From the NCBI GenBank assembly GCA_965205975.1, contig OZ242195.1, positions 4,960,001-5,024,000 on the forward strand: DNA of 64,000 nucleotides. Reading direction: 5' to 3'. Position 1 is the first letter of the stretch. Each line of letters opens with the position of its first letter. Positions 21,505-53,508 of this stretch are shown here, in pieces. Below the pieces are notes generated by a model, which had not been told where the DNA came from, ran no database searches, and saw nothing but the letters and a program-made list of their open reading frames with translations. The translations under genes were made by a program, and so were the position numbers. The stretch comes from Candidatus Latescibacterota bacterium. GTDB taxonomy: Bacteria > Latescibacterota > UBA2968.

Positions 21505-24500
21505 ATGCTAAATCGAATTATTGAAGCGAGTGTGAAGAATCGGTTTCTGGTGGTGATCGCCACTTTGATGGTGATTGGATGGGGGGTGTATGCGATGCTG
21601 AATACGCCACTGGATGCGATTCCCGATTTGTCGGATGTGCAGGTGATCGTGTTTAGCGAATATCCGGGGCAGGCGCCGCAGGTGGTGGAAGATCAGGTGA
21701 CGTATCCGCTGACGACGGCGATGTTGTCCGTGCCTTATGCAAAGACGGTGCGGGGTTATTCGTTTTTTGGCATGTCTTATGTGTATGTGATTTTTGAGGA
21801 TGGTACGGATATGTACTGGGCGCGCAGTCGGGTGTTGGAGTATCTCAATTCCGCGTCTGATAGATTGCCGCAGGGGGTAACGCCAAAGCTGGGTCCAGAT
21901 GCGACGGGCGTGGGCTGGGTCTATCAATATACGGTGCTGGATACGACCGGGAGATATGATCTTTCGGAATTGAGGTCGATTCAGGATTGGTATTTGCGGT
22001 ATGAGTTGAGTAGTGTGCAAGGTGTGTCGGAGGTGGCGTCTGTGGGTGGATTTGTGAAGCAGTATCAGGTGATTGTGGATCCCAATCGCTTGCTGGCATA
22101 CAATATTCCTTTGCAGAAGGTTCGGATGGCGATTCAGCGAAGTAATAGCGATGTGGGAGGGCGATTGGTCGAGCTGGCAGAGACGGAATTTATGGTGCGC
22201 GGGTTGGGGTATATCCAATCTGTGGCGGATATCGAGCAGATTGCCCTGGGCGTGGATGAACACGGTACGCCGATTCGCGTAAAAGATGTTGCGACTGTGC
22301 AGGTGGGTCCAGAACTTAGAAGGGGATTGGCCGAGTGGAATGGCGAGGGGGAGGTGGTGGGGGGTATTGTGGTGATGCGGTCTGGGGAAAACGCGCTCAA
22401 AGTTATTGATCGGGTGAAAGAGAAGTTGGCGTCGCTCAAACCCGGTCTTCCCGAAGGCGTGGTGGTGGTCGCCAATTACGACCGCTCGGCACTTATTCTG
22501 CGCGCGGTTGATCATTTGCAGAAGAAGTTGATTGAAGAGATCGCGATCGTGGCTGTGGTGTGTATTGTTTTTTTACTGCATTTTCGCAGTGCTTTTGTAG
22601 CTGTTTTTACATTGCCGATGGGGATTTTAATCGCTTTTGCAGCGATGTATCACCAGGGTGTCAATTCGAATATTATGTCTCTGGGCGGTATTGCGATTGC
22701 CATTGGGGCGATGGTGGATGCCGCTATTGTGATGATCGAAAATGCACATAAACATATCGAACGCGATGGCGGTATAAAGTCGCATAGTGAGATGATAATT
22801 GCCGCTTCGAAAGAGGTGGGACCTGCGCTGTTCTTTTCTCTGTTGATTATTACGCTGTCGTTTTTGCCGGTTTTTACACTGGAGGCGCAGGAGGGAAGGT
22901 TGTTCAAGCCGCTCGCATATACCAAGACTTATGCTATGGCGGCGGCGGCATTTTTGGCGATTACGGTTGTGCCGGTGCTGATGACTTTTTTTGTGCGGGG
23001 CAAAATTCGGTCTGAGTCGGAGAATCCCATCAGTCGTGTGTTGATCTATCTGTATCGACCTGTGATTGATTGGGTGTTGCGACATCGGGTGCTGACTATG
23101 GTGTTGGGGGGGCTGGTGTTGTTTGTGACGGTGTTTCCATTTCGGGATATTGTGGTGTCGCGTTTTTCAGATCGGCCACAGAGTTTGACTTATAAGGCAC
23201 TGGTGAAGTTGGACGCGCTGTTTCCTATGGAAAAAATTGGATCTGAATTTATGCCGCCACTGTACGAGGGCGATCTGTTATATATGCCTACGACATTGCC
23301 GGGGATATCGATTACGAAAGCGCGTGCGTTGTTGCAACAGACGGATAAGATTATTCGTACTTTCCCAGAAGTTGAACACGTATTTGGCAAAATTGGTCGG
23401 GCAGAGACTGCGACAGACCCGGCGCCGCTGTCGATGATTGAGACGACGATTATGCTCAAGCCCGAGTCCGAGTGGCGAGAAGGGATGACGCCTCAAAAAT
23501 TAATTCGAGAATTGAATCAGGCGGTGAAATTTCCGGGATTGACCAATGCGTGGACTATGCCGATTAAGACGCGCATCGATATGCTTTCAACGGGTATTAA
23601 GACGCCTGTAGGTATCAAGGTCGTGGGGGATGATCTGGAGACATTGCAGATGTTGGGCGAGAAAATCGAGACGGTGGTGCGCGATTTGCCAGGTACACTG
23701 AGTGTGTTTGCCGAGCGCGCAGTAGGCGGCAATTATTTGGATTTTGAGATCAATAGGCAGGCTGCTGCGCGTTACGGGCTGACGGTTGGGGATGTGCAGG
23801 ATGTTATTATGTCGGCATTGGGCGGGATGAATATCACGCATACTGTGGAGGGTTTGGAGCGCTATCCGGTGAATTTGCGTTATGGACGGGAGTTGCGCGA
23901 CAATTTGCCCGCGCTTCGGCGCGTGCTGGTGCCCACGCCGATGGGGGCGCAGATTCCCATTGGACAGTTGGCAGATCTTCGCATTCGGAAGGGGCCGCCG
24001 AGCATTAAGAGCGAGAATGCGCGGTTAAATGCGTGGGTCTATGTCGATATTGAAGGGGTGGATGTGGGGACTTATGTGGCGCGGGCGCAACAGGCGGTGT
24101 TGGAGCAGGTGCAGATGCCACCCGGGTACACCGCGATCTGGAGTGGCCAGTATGAATATATGTTGCGGGCAGAGAAAAAGCTGAAGGTCGTGGTGCCTGT
24201 GACGCTAGCGATCATTTTTGTACTGTTGTATCTGAATTTTAGAAATGTAGCTGAGACCGCGATTGTGATGCTTTCTCTGCCCTTTGCTCTGGTCGGTGGG
24301 ATATGGTTGATGTATATTTTGGATTACGATATGAGCATTGCCGTGGGTGTTGGGTTTATCGCGCTGGCGGGATTGGCTGCCGAGACGGGGGTGGTGATGC
24401 TGATTTATCTGGATCAGGCTTATGAGAGTATTAGACGCGAAAAAGGCGATGTTTTGACGCTGGCAGATTTAAATCAGGCGGTGATGTCCGGTGCTGTGGA

Positions 24501-48258: not shown

Positions 48259-49464
48259 ATGCCCAAATCTCCTTTTACACAGCGCGTTCTCAATATCCAG
48301 GCTTCTGCGACGGTATCGGCTTTTGCCAGGGCAGGAGAACTGAAACGACAGGGCGTTGATCTCATTTCTCTCGTTGCAGGGGAACCCGATTTTGAGACGC
48401 CTGAACATATAAGAGATGCTGCGATTCGGGCTATTAATGCGGGCCATACGCGATATACCAATCCCGCGTCGGGCATTCCCGAACTCAAACTCGCGATATG
48501 TGACAAATTTGAGCGCGACAATGATTTGTATTATGACCCCTCACAAATTATTGTGACGTGTGGGGCAAAACAAACCATCTTTGACGCTATTATTGTTTTA
48601 ATAGAGGAGGGGGACGAAGCCATTATTCCCGCTCCTTATTGGACGAGCTATGCCGATCAGGTGCGCTTAATGGGTGGCAATCCGATCATTGTGCCGACTA
48701 CACCAGACTCGGATTTTTGCATGACGACGCGCCAACTCCAGGATGCTATTACCCCACGAACAAAACTTGTGCTCTTAAATAGTCCCTGCAATCCGACGGG
48801 AACTGTTTATACCCGCGAGAACCTGAATGCTCTGGCCGATGTGATTGCGGGTGCTAATGTCTATGTGATTGCCGATGAAATCTACGAAAAACTTCTCTAT
48901 GGAGATGCCGAGCATGTGTCTATCGCGGCTTTGTTGCCCGAGTTAGCAGATAGAACACTGACTGTTAATGGGGTATCAAAATCCTATGCAATGACCGGAT
49001 GGCGCGTGGGGTATGGCGCGGGCCCCCAGAATTTGATCGATTTGATGATCAAAGTTCAGACCCAGGAAACTACTAATACGTGTTCGATTTCCCAATACGC
49101 CGCACTCGAAGCACTTACAGGACCTCAAGGCTGCGTCGAAGTGATGCGGCGTGCTTATGTTAAACGACGCAATCAAATCGTTTCTCGTCTCAATCGGATG
49201 CCGGGCGTGTCTTGCAATATGCCCCGGGGCGCGTTTTATGTTTTTCCCGATATCTCTGAATATATTGGCAAGCCGTCATCTTGCGGGCGTATTGACAGCG
49301 ATGTTGCGCTTTGCAATTTTTTGCTCGAAGAAGCGCGTGTCGCCTGCGTTCCCGGTACGGGTTTTGGAGCACCGGGATATTTGCGATTTTCCTATGCCGC
49401 GTCACCCGAGCAAATCACCCGGGGCATGGATCGCATTGAAGCGGCGTTGACTGCACTTTTATGA
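48259..49464 (+). CDS. aspC: Aspartate aminotransferase family (class I) PLP enzyme
   Basis: GEPDF, GAKQ, NSPCNPTG, DEIY, SKSYAMTGWRVG. Confidence 0.8.
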   Translation: MPKSPFTQRVLNIQASATVSAFARAGELKRQGVDLISLVAGEPDFETPEHIRDAAIRAINAGHTRYTNPASGIPELKLAICDKFERDNDLYYDPSQIIVTCGAKQTIFDAIIVLIEEGDEAIIPAPYWTSYADQVRLMGGNPIIVPTTPDSDFCMTTRQLQDAITPRTKLVLLNSPCNPTGTVYTRENLNALADVIAGANVYVIADEIYEKLLYGDAEHVSIAALLPELADRTLTVNGVSKSYAMTGWRVGYGAGPQNLIDLMIKVQTQETTNTCSISQYAALEALTGPQGCVEVMRRAYVKRRNQIVSRLNRMPGVSCNMPRGAFYVFPDISEYIGKPSSCGRIDSDVALCNFLLEEARVACVPGTGFGAPGYLRFSYAASPEQITRGMDRIEAALTALL

Positions 49465-49558
49465 GAATCAGCGAATCAACGAATCAACGAATCAACGAAT
49501 CGAAGCTCGTAGTGATTTTGGGTGGTGGGGCGGAGTTCGTCTATTCGTCTATTCGTCT
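49465..49558 (+). repeat. Octamer-armed intergenic element, copy 3
   Basis: (CGAATCAA)x3, core GATTTTGGGTGGTGGGGCGGAGTTCG, (TCTATTCG)x2. Confidence 0.8.
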
Positions 49559-49579
49559 TCTTTGAAAGGACGATCATTC

Positions 49580-50548
49580 ATGAGCGACCGATCTTATCTC
49601 GATTTTGAACAGCCACTGGCCGAGTTGGAGGAGAAAATCGCCGCGCTTCGGGAACGGGCCAAAGCGGAAGGTCTGGATGTGACTGACGCAATTGAAGTTC
49701 TCGAGAAACGCCACGAGAAACTCGAACGCGATATTTTTCGCAATCTTACGCGATGGCAAAAATACCAGCTATCACGCCACCCTCAGCGACCTTATTCGCT
49801 GGACTATATCGACCGTATAACTTCTGATTTTATCGAATTGCACGGCGATCGCTGTAGTGGGAATGATCAGGCGATTGTCGGGGGATTGGCGTATTTTGAA
49901 GGCCAACCCATCGTTGTTATCGGACAACAAAAAGGGCGCAATACAAGCGAGAATCTCAAGCGCAATTTTGGTCTTCCACATCCGGAAGGATATCGCAAAG
50001 CCCTGAGGTTGATGCAGTTGGCTGCCAAATTTGGTCGTCCCGTGCTTTGTATGGTCGATACGCCGGGCGCGTTTCCAGGTCTGGCCTCGGAACAGCGAAG
50101 TATATCAGAAGCCATTGCTCGCAACCTGTTAGAGATGGCGCGGCTACCCGTTCCGATTGTCATTGCAATTATCGGTGAAGGCGCGAGCGGAGGGGCACTG
50201 GGCATTGGTGTAGGCGACCAAATTCTCATGCTCGAAAATGCCTGGTATTCAGTGATCAACCCCGAATCCTGTTCGCTCATTCTCTGGCGCAACCGGGACA
50301 AACGCACGGAAGCTGCAGAAGCTATGAAAATCGCGGCAGAAGATCTTCTGGACCTCGGTGTTATTGACTGCATTGTGCCAGAGCCTTATGGGGGGGCACA
50401 TCGCAACGTTGAGTTGGCAGCACAAAATCTGAAAAAAGCCGTTTCAGATGCACTTGCAGAGATTGTTAAAATACCCGTTGAAAATCTTTCAAAATTACGG
50501 GTTGAAAAATTCAATCGAATGGGGATTTGGGAAGAATCTCATAGATAG
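49580..50548 (+). CDS. accA: Acetyl-CoA carboxylase carboxyltransferase alpha subunit
   Basis: YLDFEQP, RHPQRP, ELHGDR, PEGYRKALR, DTPGAFPG, GEGASGGAL. Confidence 0.96.
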   Translation: MSDRSYLDFEQPLAELEEKIAALRERAKAEGLDVTDAIEVLEKRHEKLERDIFRNLTRWQKYQLSRHPQRPYSLDYIDRITSDFIELHGDRCSGNDQAIVGGLAYFEGQPIVVIGQQKGRNTSENLKRNFGLPHPEGYRKALRLMQLAAKFGRPVLCMVDTPGAFPGLASEQRSISEAIARNLLEMARLPVPIVIAIIGEGASGGALGIGVGDQILMLENAWYSVINPESCSLILWRNRDKRTEAAEAMKIAAEDLLDLGVIDCIVPEPYGGAHRNVELAAQNLKKAVSDALAEIVKIPVENLSKLRVEKFNRMGIWEESHR

Positions 50549-50682
50549 CGAGATATTACATCCGGCCTGAAATTCATGTCGGAAAATCTTGCAAAAACTT
50601 TTTTTATATAGCGATGTTCTTAAGTTTCAAGACCTTATTTCAATCGCGTAAAAAAAACCGACAATAAAGGTCAATTTAGTAG

Positions 50683-50711
50683 TTGACGAGCGGACTTTCA
50701 CTGTATATATT
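50683..50711 (+). promoter_or_regulatory. sigma70 promoter candidate upstream of the structured RNA
   Basis: TTGACG-N17-TATATT. Confidence 0.55.
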
Positions 50712-50778
50712 CTATTTGTGATTCAAATGAGTTTTTTGTTGTATCTTCATATTTTTAATATGGTTATGGATATTTCTA

Positions 50779-50981
50779 TTTAGGTGGGTGGAGGTTGCTC
50801 TAATCTTTAAGCCCTGAATTGGTCCAGGAGGAATTTGGGTTGGACTTTAACGGTCAAACTATGGTATTACCGGGGGAGATAATACTATAGTACTGGCCGA
50901 CAATATGAAGAAACCACATCCCTATTTCGGTGCACTCCAATTAGTGGAGGCTGATGGAAAAGATACCTTCATCCACCTGAA
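50779..50981 (+). ncRNA. ~200-nt structured non-coding RNA candidate (6S-like dimensions, family unassigned)
   Basis: 17-bp closing stem 50779-50795/50965-50981; apical hairpin 50851-50899; non-Watson-Crick pairs in both stems are G-U on the + strand; own promoter and terminator. Confidence 0.6.
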
Positions 50982-50982
50982 C

Positions 50983-51020
50983 AAAAAAGCGGTCCTATCT
51001 GGATCGTTTTTTTTATTTTT
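50983..51020. terminator. Bidirectional intrinsic terminator
   Basis: AAAAAA-GCGGTCC-TATCT-GGATCGT-TTTTTTT. Confidence 0.75.
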
Positions 51021-53385
51021 GTTCAGTTTTGAGCCACGGCACGATATCGATGTGTCCGCGATCTATTCTCATTGCGATTGCACCCGAATGATCGGTTCTC
51101 CAAATTTGTATCCCCATATCGCGAAAGCGTTGTACAACTTCTGGCGAAGGATGCCGGAATTTATTGTTTATTCCGCAAGATATGGCTACAACGCTGGGAT
51201 TGACACCCGCGAGAAACTCGGGTGTTGAGGATGTGCGCGAGCCGTGGTGCGCAGCTTTGAGGATGTCTGACCGCAGGCGATGATTCCAGAGCATCAGATC
51301 GCTATCTGTCTCGTGTTCTATATCTCCAGTCAATAATATCGCTGTTTCCCGATAGACGATTCGAATGACGACCGAACCATTATTCACCCCATCGGGCGCC
51401 GATCCCGAGTCGGAGACATAAGCCGATGTCGGATGTAGCACCAGGCCGCCAATACCCACCAGACTATCTCCCGCAGCCACAGCCTGATATCTGATGCCTT
51501 TTGTTTTTACGACCTCTTGAAGCCGTTTGCCCGTAAAAGAATCGACGTGCTGTCCCGCATCGAGATAATAACCTACCGATATCTGTTCCAAAACGGAAAT
51601 CAGGCCACCAATATGATCGGCATGCGGGTGAGATCCCACCACGACATCTATATGATCAATATTCTGACTTTTGAGAAATGGCAGAATCACGCGCTCTCCC
51701 ATGTCGGTGTATTGCGTGCGAATACCACCATCGACCAGAAGTGTTCGTCCATTCGGATATTTAAAAAAAATAGCATCGCCCTGACCGACATCGAGGAAAT
51801 AGATTTCAAGGGCTGACTCTGTTTGCCAGATATTTTTCCAGATTCCGATATTTGCCAGAACAAGGGCGATTATGAGACAATAAGTACCCCAAAGCCGTCT
51901 GACAGTAGGGTGAATCAGAGGAATCAGGACCAGATAAATAGCAAAGATAACCCAGGAGGGACGCGCAACTTCAAAGGCAGCCCACTCTGGCTCGGCCATG
52001 AATTTTGCACATTTGATTGTCCCGCTCAAAATTAGCCAGTTCGCGGCGTTTAATATCGTCGCCAGAGGTTCCCAACAGGCGAAGGCCAATACAGTCAGGA
52101 GTCCCAGTGCGACGCCAACGCCTATGAGTGGTACGACAATTAAATTTGCAATTAGGCCAATAACCGATACCAGCCCAAAATATGCCACAACAAAGGGTAG
52201 AGTCGTTGCCTGAGCAGCGAGAGAAACAGCCAGAGGCCCTGCGATAAAGGTATCGTACCATCCCTTTTTTTCGGGTAAGAAGTCACGCAATGGTCGATAA
52301 AAAATTAAAATGCCGCCCGTGGCTACAAACGACAGTTGAAAACCCACATCGAACAGGTCCTGTGGTCGAGCGATCAATAGTCCCAAACCCGCTATGCCCA
52401 GGATGTTTCCACCGTCTATATCGCGCTGTCCCACCATGCCCAAAAGTGCCACACATCCCATTGTCGAAGCGCGCACGACCGAGGGAGGCAATCCGGTTAT
52501 CAGCGCGTAAAGTACCAGCGCAAAGATTGTCAGCGTGGCAGTGATGCCCCGCGCAATTCCCAGTATCTTTAGCGAGAAAAATATAGCTCCAGCAATCAAA
52601 CCTACGTGAAGTCCAGATACCGCTAAGACGTGATTGACACCCGTTTGTGCGAATGCGGTTTTAACTTCTTCGGGCACCGCGTGCTTTGCGCCTAAAAGCA
52701 CCCCTTTTAAGAGGCCAGCAGGTCCCCCGGAAAGATTCTGATCAATTGCACGGCGAATGAGATTTCTAATGGGCAATACGATCTGTGCCCACCAGTCATC
52801 TTTTTCATGTTGATGTGCAATAATCTGGGTGCGCTTTTGCACCGTGCCCAAAGCATCAATACCCCTTCGTTTCAGAAATTCCCGGTAATCAAATGCGCCC
52901 GGATTTCGCGGGAGACCAGGTTGATAGAGCTGTATCTGCAATTGCATTCGATCCCCGTATGTGGGCAATGCAGTACCCGCCTTAAACCTGATTAGCGCCT
53001 TGCCGCTTACAGCGCGTGCCGTGTCTTTGAAGACGATTTGAAGTACGTTAAAGACGGTGCGATAATCGCCATCGATGCGTTCTGGGTCCGACGATACCAA
53101 TCCTTCGACTTCGGCAAGTGTGCGGTCTGCAGGTAAGAACAGGACAAAGTGATCTACAGCGCGTTCCAGGCTCTGCGCGCTTCTCAATGCACCCAGCAAA
53201 ATGAGAAGGCTCGCAAAAAGGATGCTCATCTTTCCCTTATTCCAGTTTCTCCACAGCCCCACGCCACAAAAACAGATAAGGGTAAAGGCGCAGAGTATGG
53301 TGGGTGCTGGAAATACCCCAATATACCTGTGTAAACCGATTCCCAAAGCGAAGTACAGCGCAGTCCACAATGCGGGTCGTCTCAT
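51013..53385 (-). CDS. comEC: ComEC/Rec2 DNA-uptake protein
   Basis: RNPGAFDY, HVLAVSGLHVG, GFQLSF, LDVGQGDA, SHPHADHIGG, HHGS. Confidence 0.93.
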   Translation of the reverse strand: MRRPALWTALYFALGIGLHRYIGVFPAPTILCAFTLICFCGVGLWRNWNKGKMSILFASLLILLGALRSAQSLERAVDHFVLFLPADRTLAEVEGLVSSDPERIDGDYRTVFNVLQIVFKDTARAVSGKALIRFKAGTALPTYGDRMQLQIQLYQPGLPRNPGAFDYREFLKRRGIDALGTVQKRTQIIAHQHEKDDWWAQIVLPIRNLIRRAIDQNLSGGPAGLLKGVLLGAKHAVPEEVKTAFAQTGVNHVLAVSGLHVGLIAGAIFFSLKILGIARGITATLTIFALVLYALITGLPPSVVRASTMGCVALLGMVGQRDIDGGNILGIAGLGLLIARPQDLFDVGFQLSFVATGGILIFYRPLRDFLPEKKGWYDTFIAGPLAVSLAAQATTLPFVVAYFGLVSVIGLIANLIVVPLIGVGVALGLLTVLAFACWEPLATILNAANWLILSGTIKCAKFMAEPEWAAFEVARPSWVIFAIYLVLIPLIHPTVRRLWGTYCLIIALVLANIGIWKNIWQTESALEIYFLDVGQGDAIFFKYPNGRTLLVDGGIRTQYTDMGERVILPFLKSQNIDHIDVVVGSHPHADHIGGLISVLEQISVGYYLDAGQHVDSFTGKRLQEVVKTKGIRYQAVAAGDSLVGIGGLVLHPTSAYVSDSGSAPDGVNNGSVVIRIVYRETAILLTGDIEHETDSDLMLWNHRLRSDILKAAHHGSRTSSTPEFLAGVNPSVVAISCGINNKFRHPSPEVVQRFRDMGIQIWRTDHSGAIAMRIDRGHIDIVPWLKTEQK

Positions 53386-53508
53386 GTTGTTTCCTTTTTT
53401 GATCCCGTATTGTGGCAATTTTCGTGCCAGCTCTCATGGCGTGCTCATCTCCGCTATTTGAGGAAAAAACTGTTCACATGATTAAAAAAAATGTTCCCCT
53501 TTTCGTCA

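Follow-up and report, generated by a model that had tools for sequence, protein, structure and literature searches.

A rod-shaped structured RNA gene conserved across an order of Latescibacterota and its tentative reading as a functional counterpart of 6S RNA

A Candidatus Latescibacterota bacterium carries, between accA and comEC, a rod-shaped structured RNA that is conserved throughout its order and absent from Rfam 15. It was studied in a window of 64,000 nucleotides (contig OZ242195.1, forward strand, positions 4,960,001 to 5,024,000), and coordinates below are those of the window unless stated otherwise. Covariation, a promoter and terminator of its own and order-wide occurrence in single copy show that it is a housekeeping-type non-coding RNA gene. 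A first-pass annotation, made from the letters of the DNA, had proposed a stand-alone structured RNA gene at this place, and covariation, single-copy occurrence, relocation together with the promoter and, more weakly, contigs from RNA libraries bear this out. Our leading reading, held with less than even confidence, is that the RNA works like 6S RNA; it does not qualify as a member of the 6S family. The features of the locus are listed in Table 1.

Table 1. Features of the rod RNA locus and its neighbours
Feature	Position	Strand	Remarks
accA	49562..50548	+	usual upstream neighbour, outside the RNA gene; NCBIfam PRK05724/TIGR00513 above cut-off
IHF-like box TTTCAAGACCTTA	50625..50637	+	starts 57-59 bp upstream of the -35 hexamer
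sigma70-type promoter TTGACG-N17-TATATT	50683..50711	+	-35 at 50683-50688, 17-nt spacer, -10 at 50706-50711
A/U-rich leader of the putative precursor	50718..50778	+	start site predicted from the -10 box
rod-shaped non-coding RNA, conserved core	50779..50981	+	fold, covariation, order-wide conservation
closing stem, 5' strand	50779..50795	+	17 bp with 50965-50981
CUGAAUUGG, 5' strand of the helix adjoining the central loop	50814..50822	+	pairs with CCAAUUAG, 50937-50944
apical hairpin tip, GGGGGA loop at 50872-50877, then GA	50866..50884	+	invariant
central-loop 3' strand, conserved	50929..50936	+	GGUGCACU here; family consensus GAUGCAUC, self-complementary
intrinsic terminator	50983..51020	+	A-tract/U-tract flanks; located at 50983-51013 in the sequence check
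comEC/rec2	51013..53418	-	convergent neighbour, outside the RNA gene; TIGR00361 above cut-off

The segment 50770-50990 folds with a predicted energy of -75.6 kcal/mol (z -4.58), and none of 200 shuffled sequences was as stable. The minus strand of the region folds too (z -4.50), and the assignment to the plus strand therefore rests on the asymmetry of wobble pairs: the alignment of 26 homologues holds 243 G-U or U-G cells against 6 A-C or C-A cells. The 17-bp closing stem, the apical arm at 50851-50899 and the nested pairings ATCTTT/AAAGAT, AGCC/GGCT and AATTGG/CCAATT, all read from the sequence in the first-pass annotation, were located. Its statement that every non-Watson-Crick pair in the main stems is G-U agrees with this asymmetry and with the closing stem, which contains three G-U pairs and no mismatch, and fails at one C-A mismatch beneath the apical loop, seen in this genus. 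The core measures 174-218 nt among homologues, and central loops of about 7+8 nt appear in consensus folds, with 0-2 versus 10-11 nt in one genus.

In 26 family sequences, 96.4% of the cells pair and both sides change in 26 of 56 pairs, a level approached by none of 500 shuffles and by none of the slid controls, the structure itself being derived from the same alignment. Covariation among relatives, proposed as a check in the first-pass annotation, is thus strong. Across the order, 38 distinct sequences show both-side changes in 49 of 56 pairs, in a model-fitted alignment that leans towards the model. The closing helix has such changes in 6 of 15 pairs, and in the helix adjoining the central loop (CUGAAUUGG/CCAAUUAG) a G-C pair is replaced by U-A in three sequences. 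Two elements are conserved in sequence. At the tip, GGGGGAGA is invariant in 27 of 27 rows, sister order included; the tip is 99.7% identical within the genus, and its loop is predicted to be unpaired (mean 0.97). The central-loop strand is of the (G/U)AUGCAUC type with one invariant C (mean predicted unpaired 0.71). The two are 49-55 nt apart in the own order, except in one relocated copy (41 nt), and 42 and 50 nt apart in the sister order; the closing arm varies in length by about 25 nt a side.

Among 61 relatives, BLAST detected the region in 26. Of three successive covariance models, the second (R2) had a poor default structure of 20 pairs and acted mostly as a sequence profile. The last, used for the order-wide count, recovered the RNA from 51 of 53 genomes examined in the order and from 22 of 22 high-quality ones; both genomes without it belong to one genus. 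It is single-copy in 50 of the 51 positive genomes and present twice in one genome with 10% contamination. There, two slightly different accA-RNA-comEC copies lie near opposite ends of a single contig (34476 and 5919676), probably through assembly overlap of strains. Synteny revealed homologues in two of three genomes of the sister order, between accA and comEC and behind the same promoter; both afterwards entered the last covariance model. Within the same class, the second and third models found the RNA in none of the 64 genomes sampled from one family (f3), and it was absent downstream of comEC or accA in the members inspected (3 and 5 genomes). It was not found in the other families and classes of a 151-genome sample of the phylum, nor in a phage collection, nor in seven genomes of another phylum, a search run without positive control. 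A pattern scan of metagenomes gave 42 matches, comprising 15 full-length homologues and 27 pattern-only matches without the full structure, and those homologues with visible flanks all adjoin accA or comEC.

The flanking genes named in the first-pass annotation, accA and comEC, are both supported by family models above cut-off. Relocated copies of the RNA keep the promoter and the upstream IHF-like box, whether moved away from accA (loci L114 and L117) or from both neighbours (L118), and the RNA is therefore a gene in its own right. One genome has the 5' half of the RNA at its accA locus (L022:1886-1975), broken off immediately ahead of the apical loop, and elsewhere a complete second copy, shorter and divergent (L118:2016-2191), that has a promoter and an IHF-like box of its own; this arrangement may stem from a relocation, an insertion or a misassembly. 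As a separate observation, a palindromic repeat of about 100 nt occupies 49460-49565, between an aspartate aminotransferase gene and accA. It has about 80 BLAST matches in the genome, is skipped by RNA contigs of relatives and resembles elements of the REP/MITE type. Further palindromic repeats, strongly folding and bearing terminal inverted repeats, are dispersed elsewhere (for example at 4861664, 2242188, 632895 and 3495848 of the contig), and a CRISPR-like array lies near position 24400 of the same contig.

As a pattern alone, the promoter is not above chance in the DNA searched (2 found against 2.3 expected). Its conservation is another matter: TTGAC-N18-TATATT stands upstream of the rod in 39 of 39 homologous loci examined (one with the variant TATTCT), which were selected to represent the diversity of about 62 distinct homologues, and the promoter reported by the first-pass annotation is thus kept throughout. 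The IHF-like box is 98% identical among 16 relatives of the genus, whereas identity falls to 74% in the DNA immediately upstream. A box TTTCAA-N4-TTA occurs at the same position in 36 of the 39 loci under a lenient pattern with hand-added variants, and near-variants were recognized by eye in the other three. The box resembles the IHF consensus, WATCAANNNNTTR, a string that turns up together with integration host factor in published papers, and the genome has four IHF/HU-family genes; an IHF-family protein may bind here. Directly past the predicted start, the bottom strand of some leaders (L199, L201 and L050) contains a further IHF-like site, with a perfect AATCAA-N4-TTA in both sister-order loci, and an A/T-rich block at 50742-50766, conserved in this genus, lies in the same place.

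With the promoter about 60 nt upstream of the rod, the primary transcript carries a leader. Its length ranges from 27 to 571 nt across homologues, and within the genus it is 83% identical against 93% for the rod. The combination of a fixed core and a variable leader suggests processing, for which B. subtilis 6S-1, described as processed in the abstract of PMC10578484, offers a parallel. At the other end, the intrinsic terminator noted in the first-pass annotation is present and, given its A-tract and U-tract flanks, probably bidirectional.

Transcripts were sought in four RNA runs from four studies, all as unstranded contigs, without DNA control and from relatives; sponge metatranscriptomes are among the RNA libraries that contain this stretch. 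In three of the four runs, contig depth over the rod is far above that of neighbouring contigs, a measure that cannot rank genes. In run X8, a contig starting at 50791 has a depth of 241 against 6.4 for the upstream contig; in run X4, a contig covering 50525-50992 has a depth of 41 against 2-10 for most neighbours; and in run X11, two short contigs within 50803-50874 reach depths of 690 and 1205 against 2.5-27. Run X1 yielded a 4157-nt contig that passes through accA and ends at 50970. Together with these depths, the contig ends at 50970 and 50992, from different studies, hint weakly at an abundant RNA that stops at the terminator.

Several properties point towards 6S RNA (ssrS, RF00013), which a passage of PMC8876501 describes as a rod of about 200 nt with a closing stem, a central bubble and interrupted or apical arms. 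The RNA studied here is likewise an unbranched rod of about 200 nt with a closing stem and interrupted helical arms, and its closing arm is of equal length when counted by eye (40/41 nt; the RF00013 consensus has 42/41 nt). It also shares with 6S a single copy, an own promoter and terminator and, as far as the leader suggests, a precursor with a 5' extension. Finally, it is nearly universal in genomes in which no other 6S was found. The RF00013 covariance model gave no match in the 61 relatives. A profile built from 30 RF00013-positive RNAs of a neighbouring phylum recovered six sub-threshold Latescibacterota 6S RNAs at 62-76 bits; with three of these six added, it found nothing above 7.8 bits in this genome. 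The 6S-Flavo family was not found in the genome, and the zapA and ygfA loci leave no room for an RNA. A scan of the genome for rods gave 248 low-copy candidates, and of the 30 most stable this RNA alone combined a promoter pattern with a U-tract. That scan requires an uninterrupted closing stem of 10 bp and would miss a canonical 6S, and the profile search was added for this reason. SRP RNA, RNase P RNA and tmRNA are each found elsewhere in the genome, and identity of the rod with any of them was rejected, as no family model matched there.

The RF00013 model also overlooks some genuine 6S RNAs. It missed our B. thetaiotaomicron control, an organism with a validated 6S according to a passage of PMC7366714, and an excerpt of PMC8414754 reports that the divergent 6S of Weissella is hardly detected by covariance models. 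Canonical-looking 6S RNAs occur in six genomes of other Latescibacterota classes (L125-L130); they score 23-43 bits, below the RF00013 cut-off, have a promoter directly upstream, and several adjoin a tRNA. These RNAs and those of the neighbouring phylum (L229-L258) share the size range of the rod RNA, and by eye their island GUAUUAC ... GGAAGUAA resembles its tip GUAUUAC-C-GGGGGAGAUAA, a likeness that has no statistical support and differs in spacing. Unlike the rod RNA, they have a 15-nt open A/U-rich strand, a hairpin in the 3' bubble strand and the promoter directly upstream.

Other results speak against membership of the 6S family. No Rfam family matched anywhere in the window at gathering thresholds, no relevant one matched the rod region at E<=10, and none matched 20 diverse homologues at E<=10; the comparison with RF00013 suggested in the first-pass annotation thus came back empty. 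Global alignment of 31 homologues to 12 6S RNAs of neighbouring lineages gave a mean z of -0.65, against 3.2 for the E. coli 6S control and -3.0 to 2.5 for unrelated rods. The neighbour-lineage profile, with positive controls at 62-76 bits, does not detect the rod RNA; a local profile comparison on short sequences missed its control and hence lacks power. Likenesses to 6S spotted by eye (CCCUGA beside the loop, the apex against the -35 island, a CUAAAA bulge) were dropped, as global alignment did not support them.

Structure points the same way. The central loop is small and asymmetric, with a G-rich 5' strand that is largely paired, and a covarying 4-bp helix shuts most of the region where the bubble strand of 6S would be open. 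The best 14-nt window is predicted to be unpaired at 0.45 in 31 homologues, against 0.74 in RF00013-positive RNAs (33 sequences) and 0.84 in the E. coli RNA, and reaches at least 0.75 in 1 of 31 against 13 of 33; the sequences are related, so that the p-value of this comparison overstates its significance. By these predictions, the open A/U-rich 5' template strand of 6S, where the polymerase initiates product RNA, appears to be missing. A release hairpin of the E. coli type was found in only 2 of 31 homologues at p<=0.06 and is not conserved; a section of PMC3988568 describes this hairpin as specific to gamma-proteobacteria. The apical arm is longer than that of 6S (31 against 24 consensus pairs), and its loop is the most conserved part of the rod RNA, yet variable in the alignment of 6S. 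The zapA/ygfA synteny of 6S is replaced by accA and comEC. Moreover, RF00013 is found in none of the 64 genomes of family f3, which also lack the rod RNA, and 6S may thus have been lost in the class. That family may have a third, unrecognised 6S-like RNA or none. With no sequence similarity, no open strand predicted, no conserved release hairpin and a family in which neither RNA was found, the rod RNA cannot be filed in RF00013. Of the divergent 6S proposed by the first-pass annotation, a similar function is still possible, and membership fails on Rfam, homology and the open bubble.

Our estimate that the rod RNA is an RNA-polymerase-binding RNA that replaces 6S, whether remodelled or independently evolved, falls a little short of an even chance. 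Transcription would begin at the sigma70-type promoter, on which an IHF-family protein probably acts from a site about 85 bp upstream, and would yield a precursor with a variable leader, to be trimmed to a stable rod of 175-215 nt. The rod would most likely bind RNA polymerase as a mimic of promoter DNA and so do the job of 6S. Its long irregular duplex would run along the polymerase, the extruded UGCAUC strand would substitute for the 3' bubble strand, and a sequence-specific protein contact would be made by the invariant GGGGGA tip. The strand on the template side is mostly paired, so that release by synthesis of a product RNA may be absent or may need melting, and the mechanism would then perhaps be closer to that of the core-binding Ms1 and CoRP than to that of E. 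coli 6S. These two RNAs of Actinobacteria, treated in a passage of PMC11077062, are a precedent for lineage-restricted polymerase-binding RNAs unrelated in sequence to 6S, and CoRP is processed according to the same passage. They differ from the rod RNA in length (about 300 and 516 nt) and phylum; the rod RNA has no Rfam match, and its polymerase binding is a prediction.

There is also a considerable chance, though we would bet against it, that the RNA forms in these two orders a housekeeping-like class not derived from 6S, with loop and bulge serving a partner or assembly, or is an independent polymerase binder without a bubble. A close rival to the polymerase-binding reading, only a little less likely, is a new RNA class with a function unrelated to 6S, in which a scaffold would present the GGGGGA loop to a specific protein and the bulge may let the RNA dimerise, as homo-oligomeric RNAs of bacteria do. 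This would fit the failure of the three 6S tests (Rfam match, homology and open strand) and the fact that only loop and bulge are invariant in sequence, at a near-constant distance. A core of 6 nt within the bulge stays self-complementary in 58 of 62 distinct homologues, with A-U, G-U and G-C variants (67 candidate sequences were collected, 5 pattern-only ones dropped and one corrected by eye), and natural RNAs are known to dimerise through palindromic pairing according to an excerpt of PMC12990946. The palindrome was noticed after the fact, however, and its covariation is weak, being reached by 12-14 of 500 shuffles and lying within what relatedness gives. Four homologues break it, namely both sister-order copies and two others, and a 2-bp mini-hairpin accounts for the pattern equally well. 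Besides, the partner protein is hypothetical, and size, single copy and absence of 6S would all have to be coincidences.

Base pairing through the G-rich loop, whether to C/U-rich sites in mRNAs or, for ribosome binding or storage, to the anti-Shine-Dalgarno tail of 16S rRNA, is improbable. The loop is invariant and predicted to be single-stranded, a duplex calculation for the tip and the 16S 3' end of this genome (GAUCACCUCCUUUCU) gives -10.0 kcal/mol, and some leaders (L047-L049) contain UCCCCC. Yet any G-rich loop matches the anti-Shine-Dalgarno sequence, which makes the match unspecific, and a loop of 6 nt capping a 12-bp stem would seed pairing poorly. The leader UCCCCC is absent from the RNA of this genome, and start codons at a conserved distance downstream were not found. 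A CsrA sponge was rejected: CsrB and RsmZ likewise expose GGA in a hairpin loop, but the rod RNA has a single conserved GGA loop, and no CsrA gene (PF02599) was found in this 98%-complete genome.

Still less probable is a cis-acting element, be it a 3' UTR of accA or comEC or a DNA hairpin. The usual place between the two genes and the contig of run X1, which spans accA through the rod, would suit such an element, but the rod relocates with its promoter and IHF-like box (L114, L117 and L118), the G-U asymmetry favours an RNA of the plus strand, the terminator parts the rod from comEC, and the rod is single-copy. The folded mRNA for a small type I toxin-like peptide, raised in the first-pass annotation, has next to no likelihood: although a TTG frame of 15 codons follows the AGGAGG at 50826 and stops (TAA, TGA or TAG) just past the loop in 37 of 37 own-order loci, no start codon is conserved in any of three frames across 39 loci, the Shine-Dalgarno sequence is 3 nt from the start, indels and stops break the frames, the stop is missing in the sister order, its variants are pairing partners of the stem, and no antisense partner was seen.

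It is rare to find a conserved, single-copy and seemingly abundant RNA outside the catalogue. Searches of the open literature for 6S with Latescibacter, for small RNAs of Latescibacterota or sponges and for the loop motif returned no description of this one, which the supplements of motif papers could list. Its hosts, sponge symbionts and marine bacteria, form a widespread group. If the RNA binds RNA polymerase, these bacteria would have kept the function of 6S without the open bubble regarded as its hallmark, or would have re-invented it once more after Ms1 and CoRP. If it does not, it would represent a new RNA class, and its two sharply delimited motifs would lend themselves to mutation. Under either reading, its alignment is ready for a new family model.
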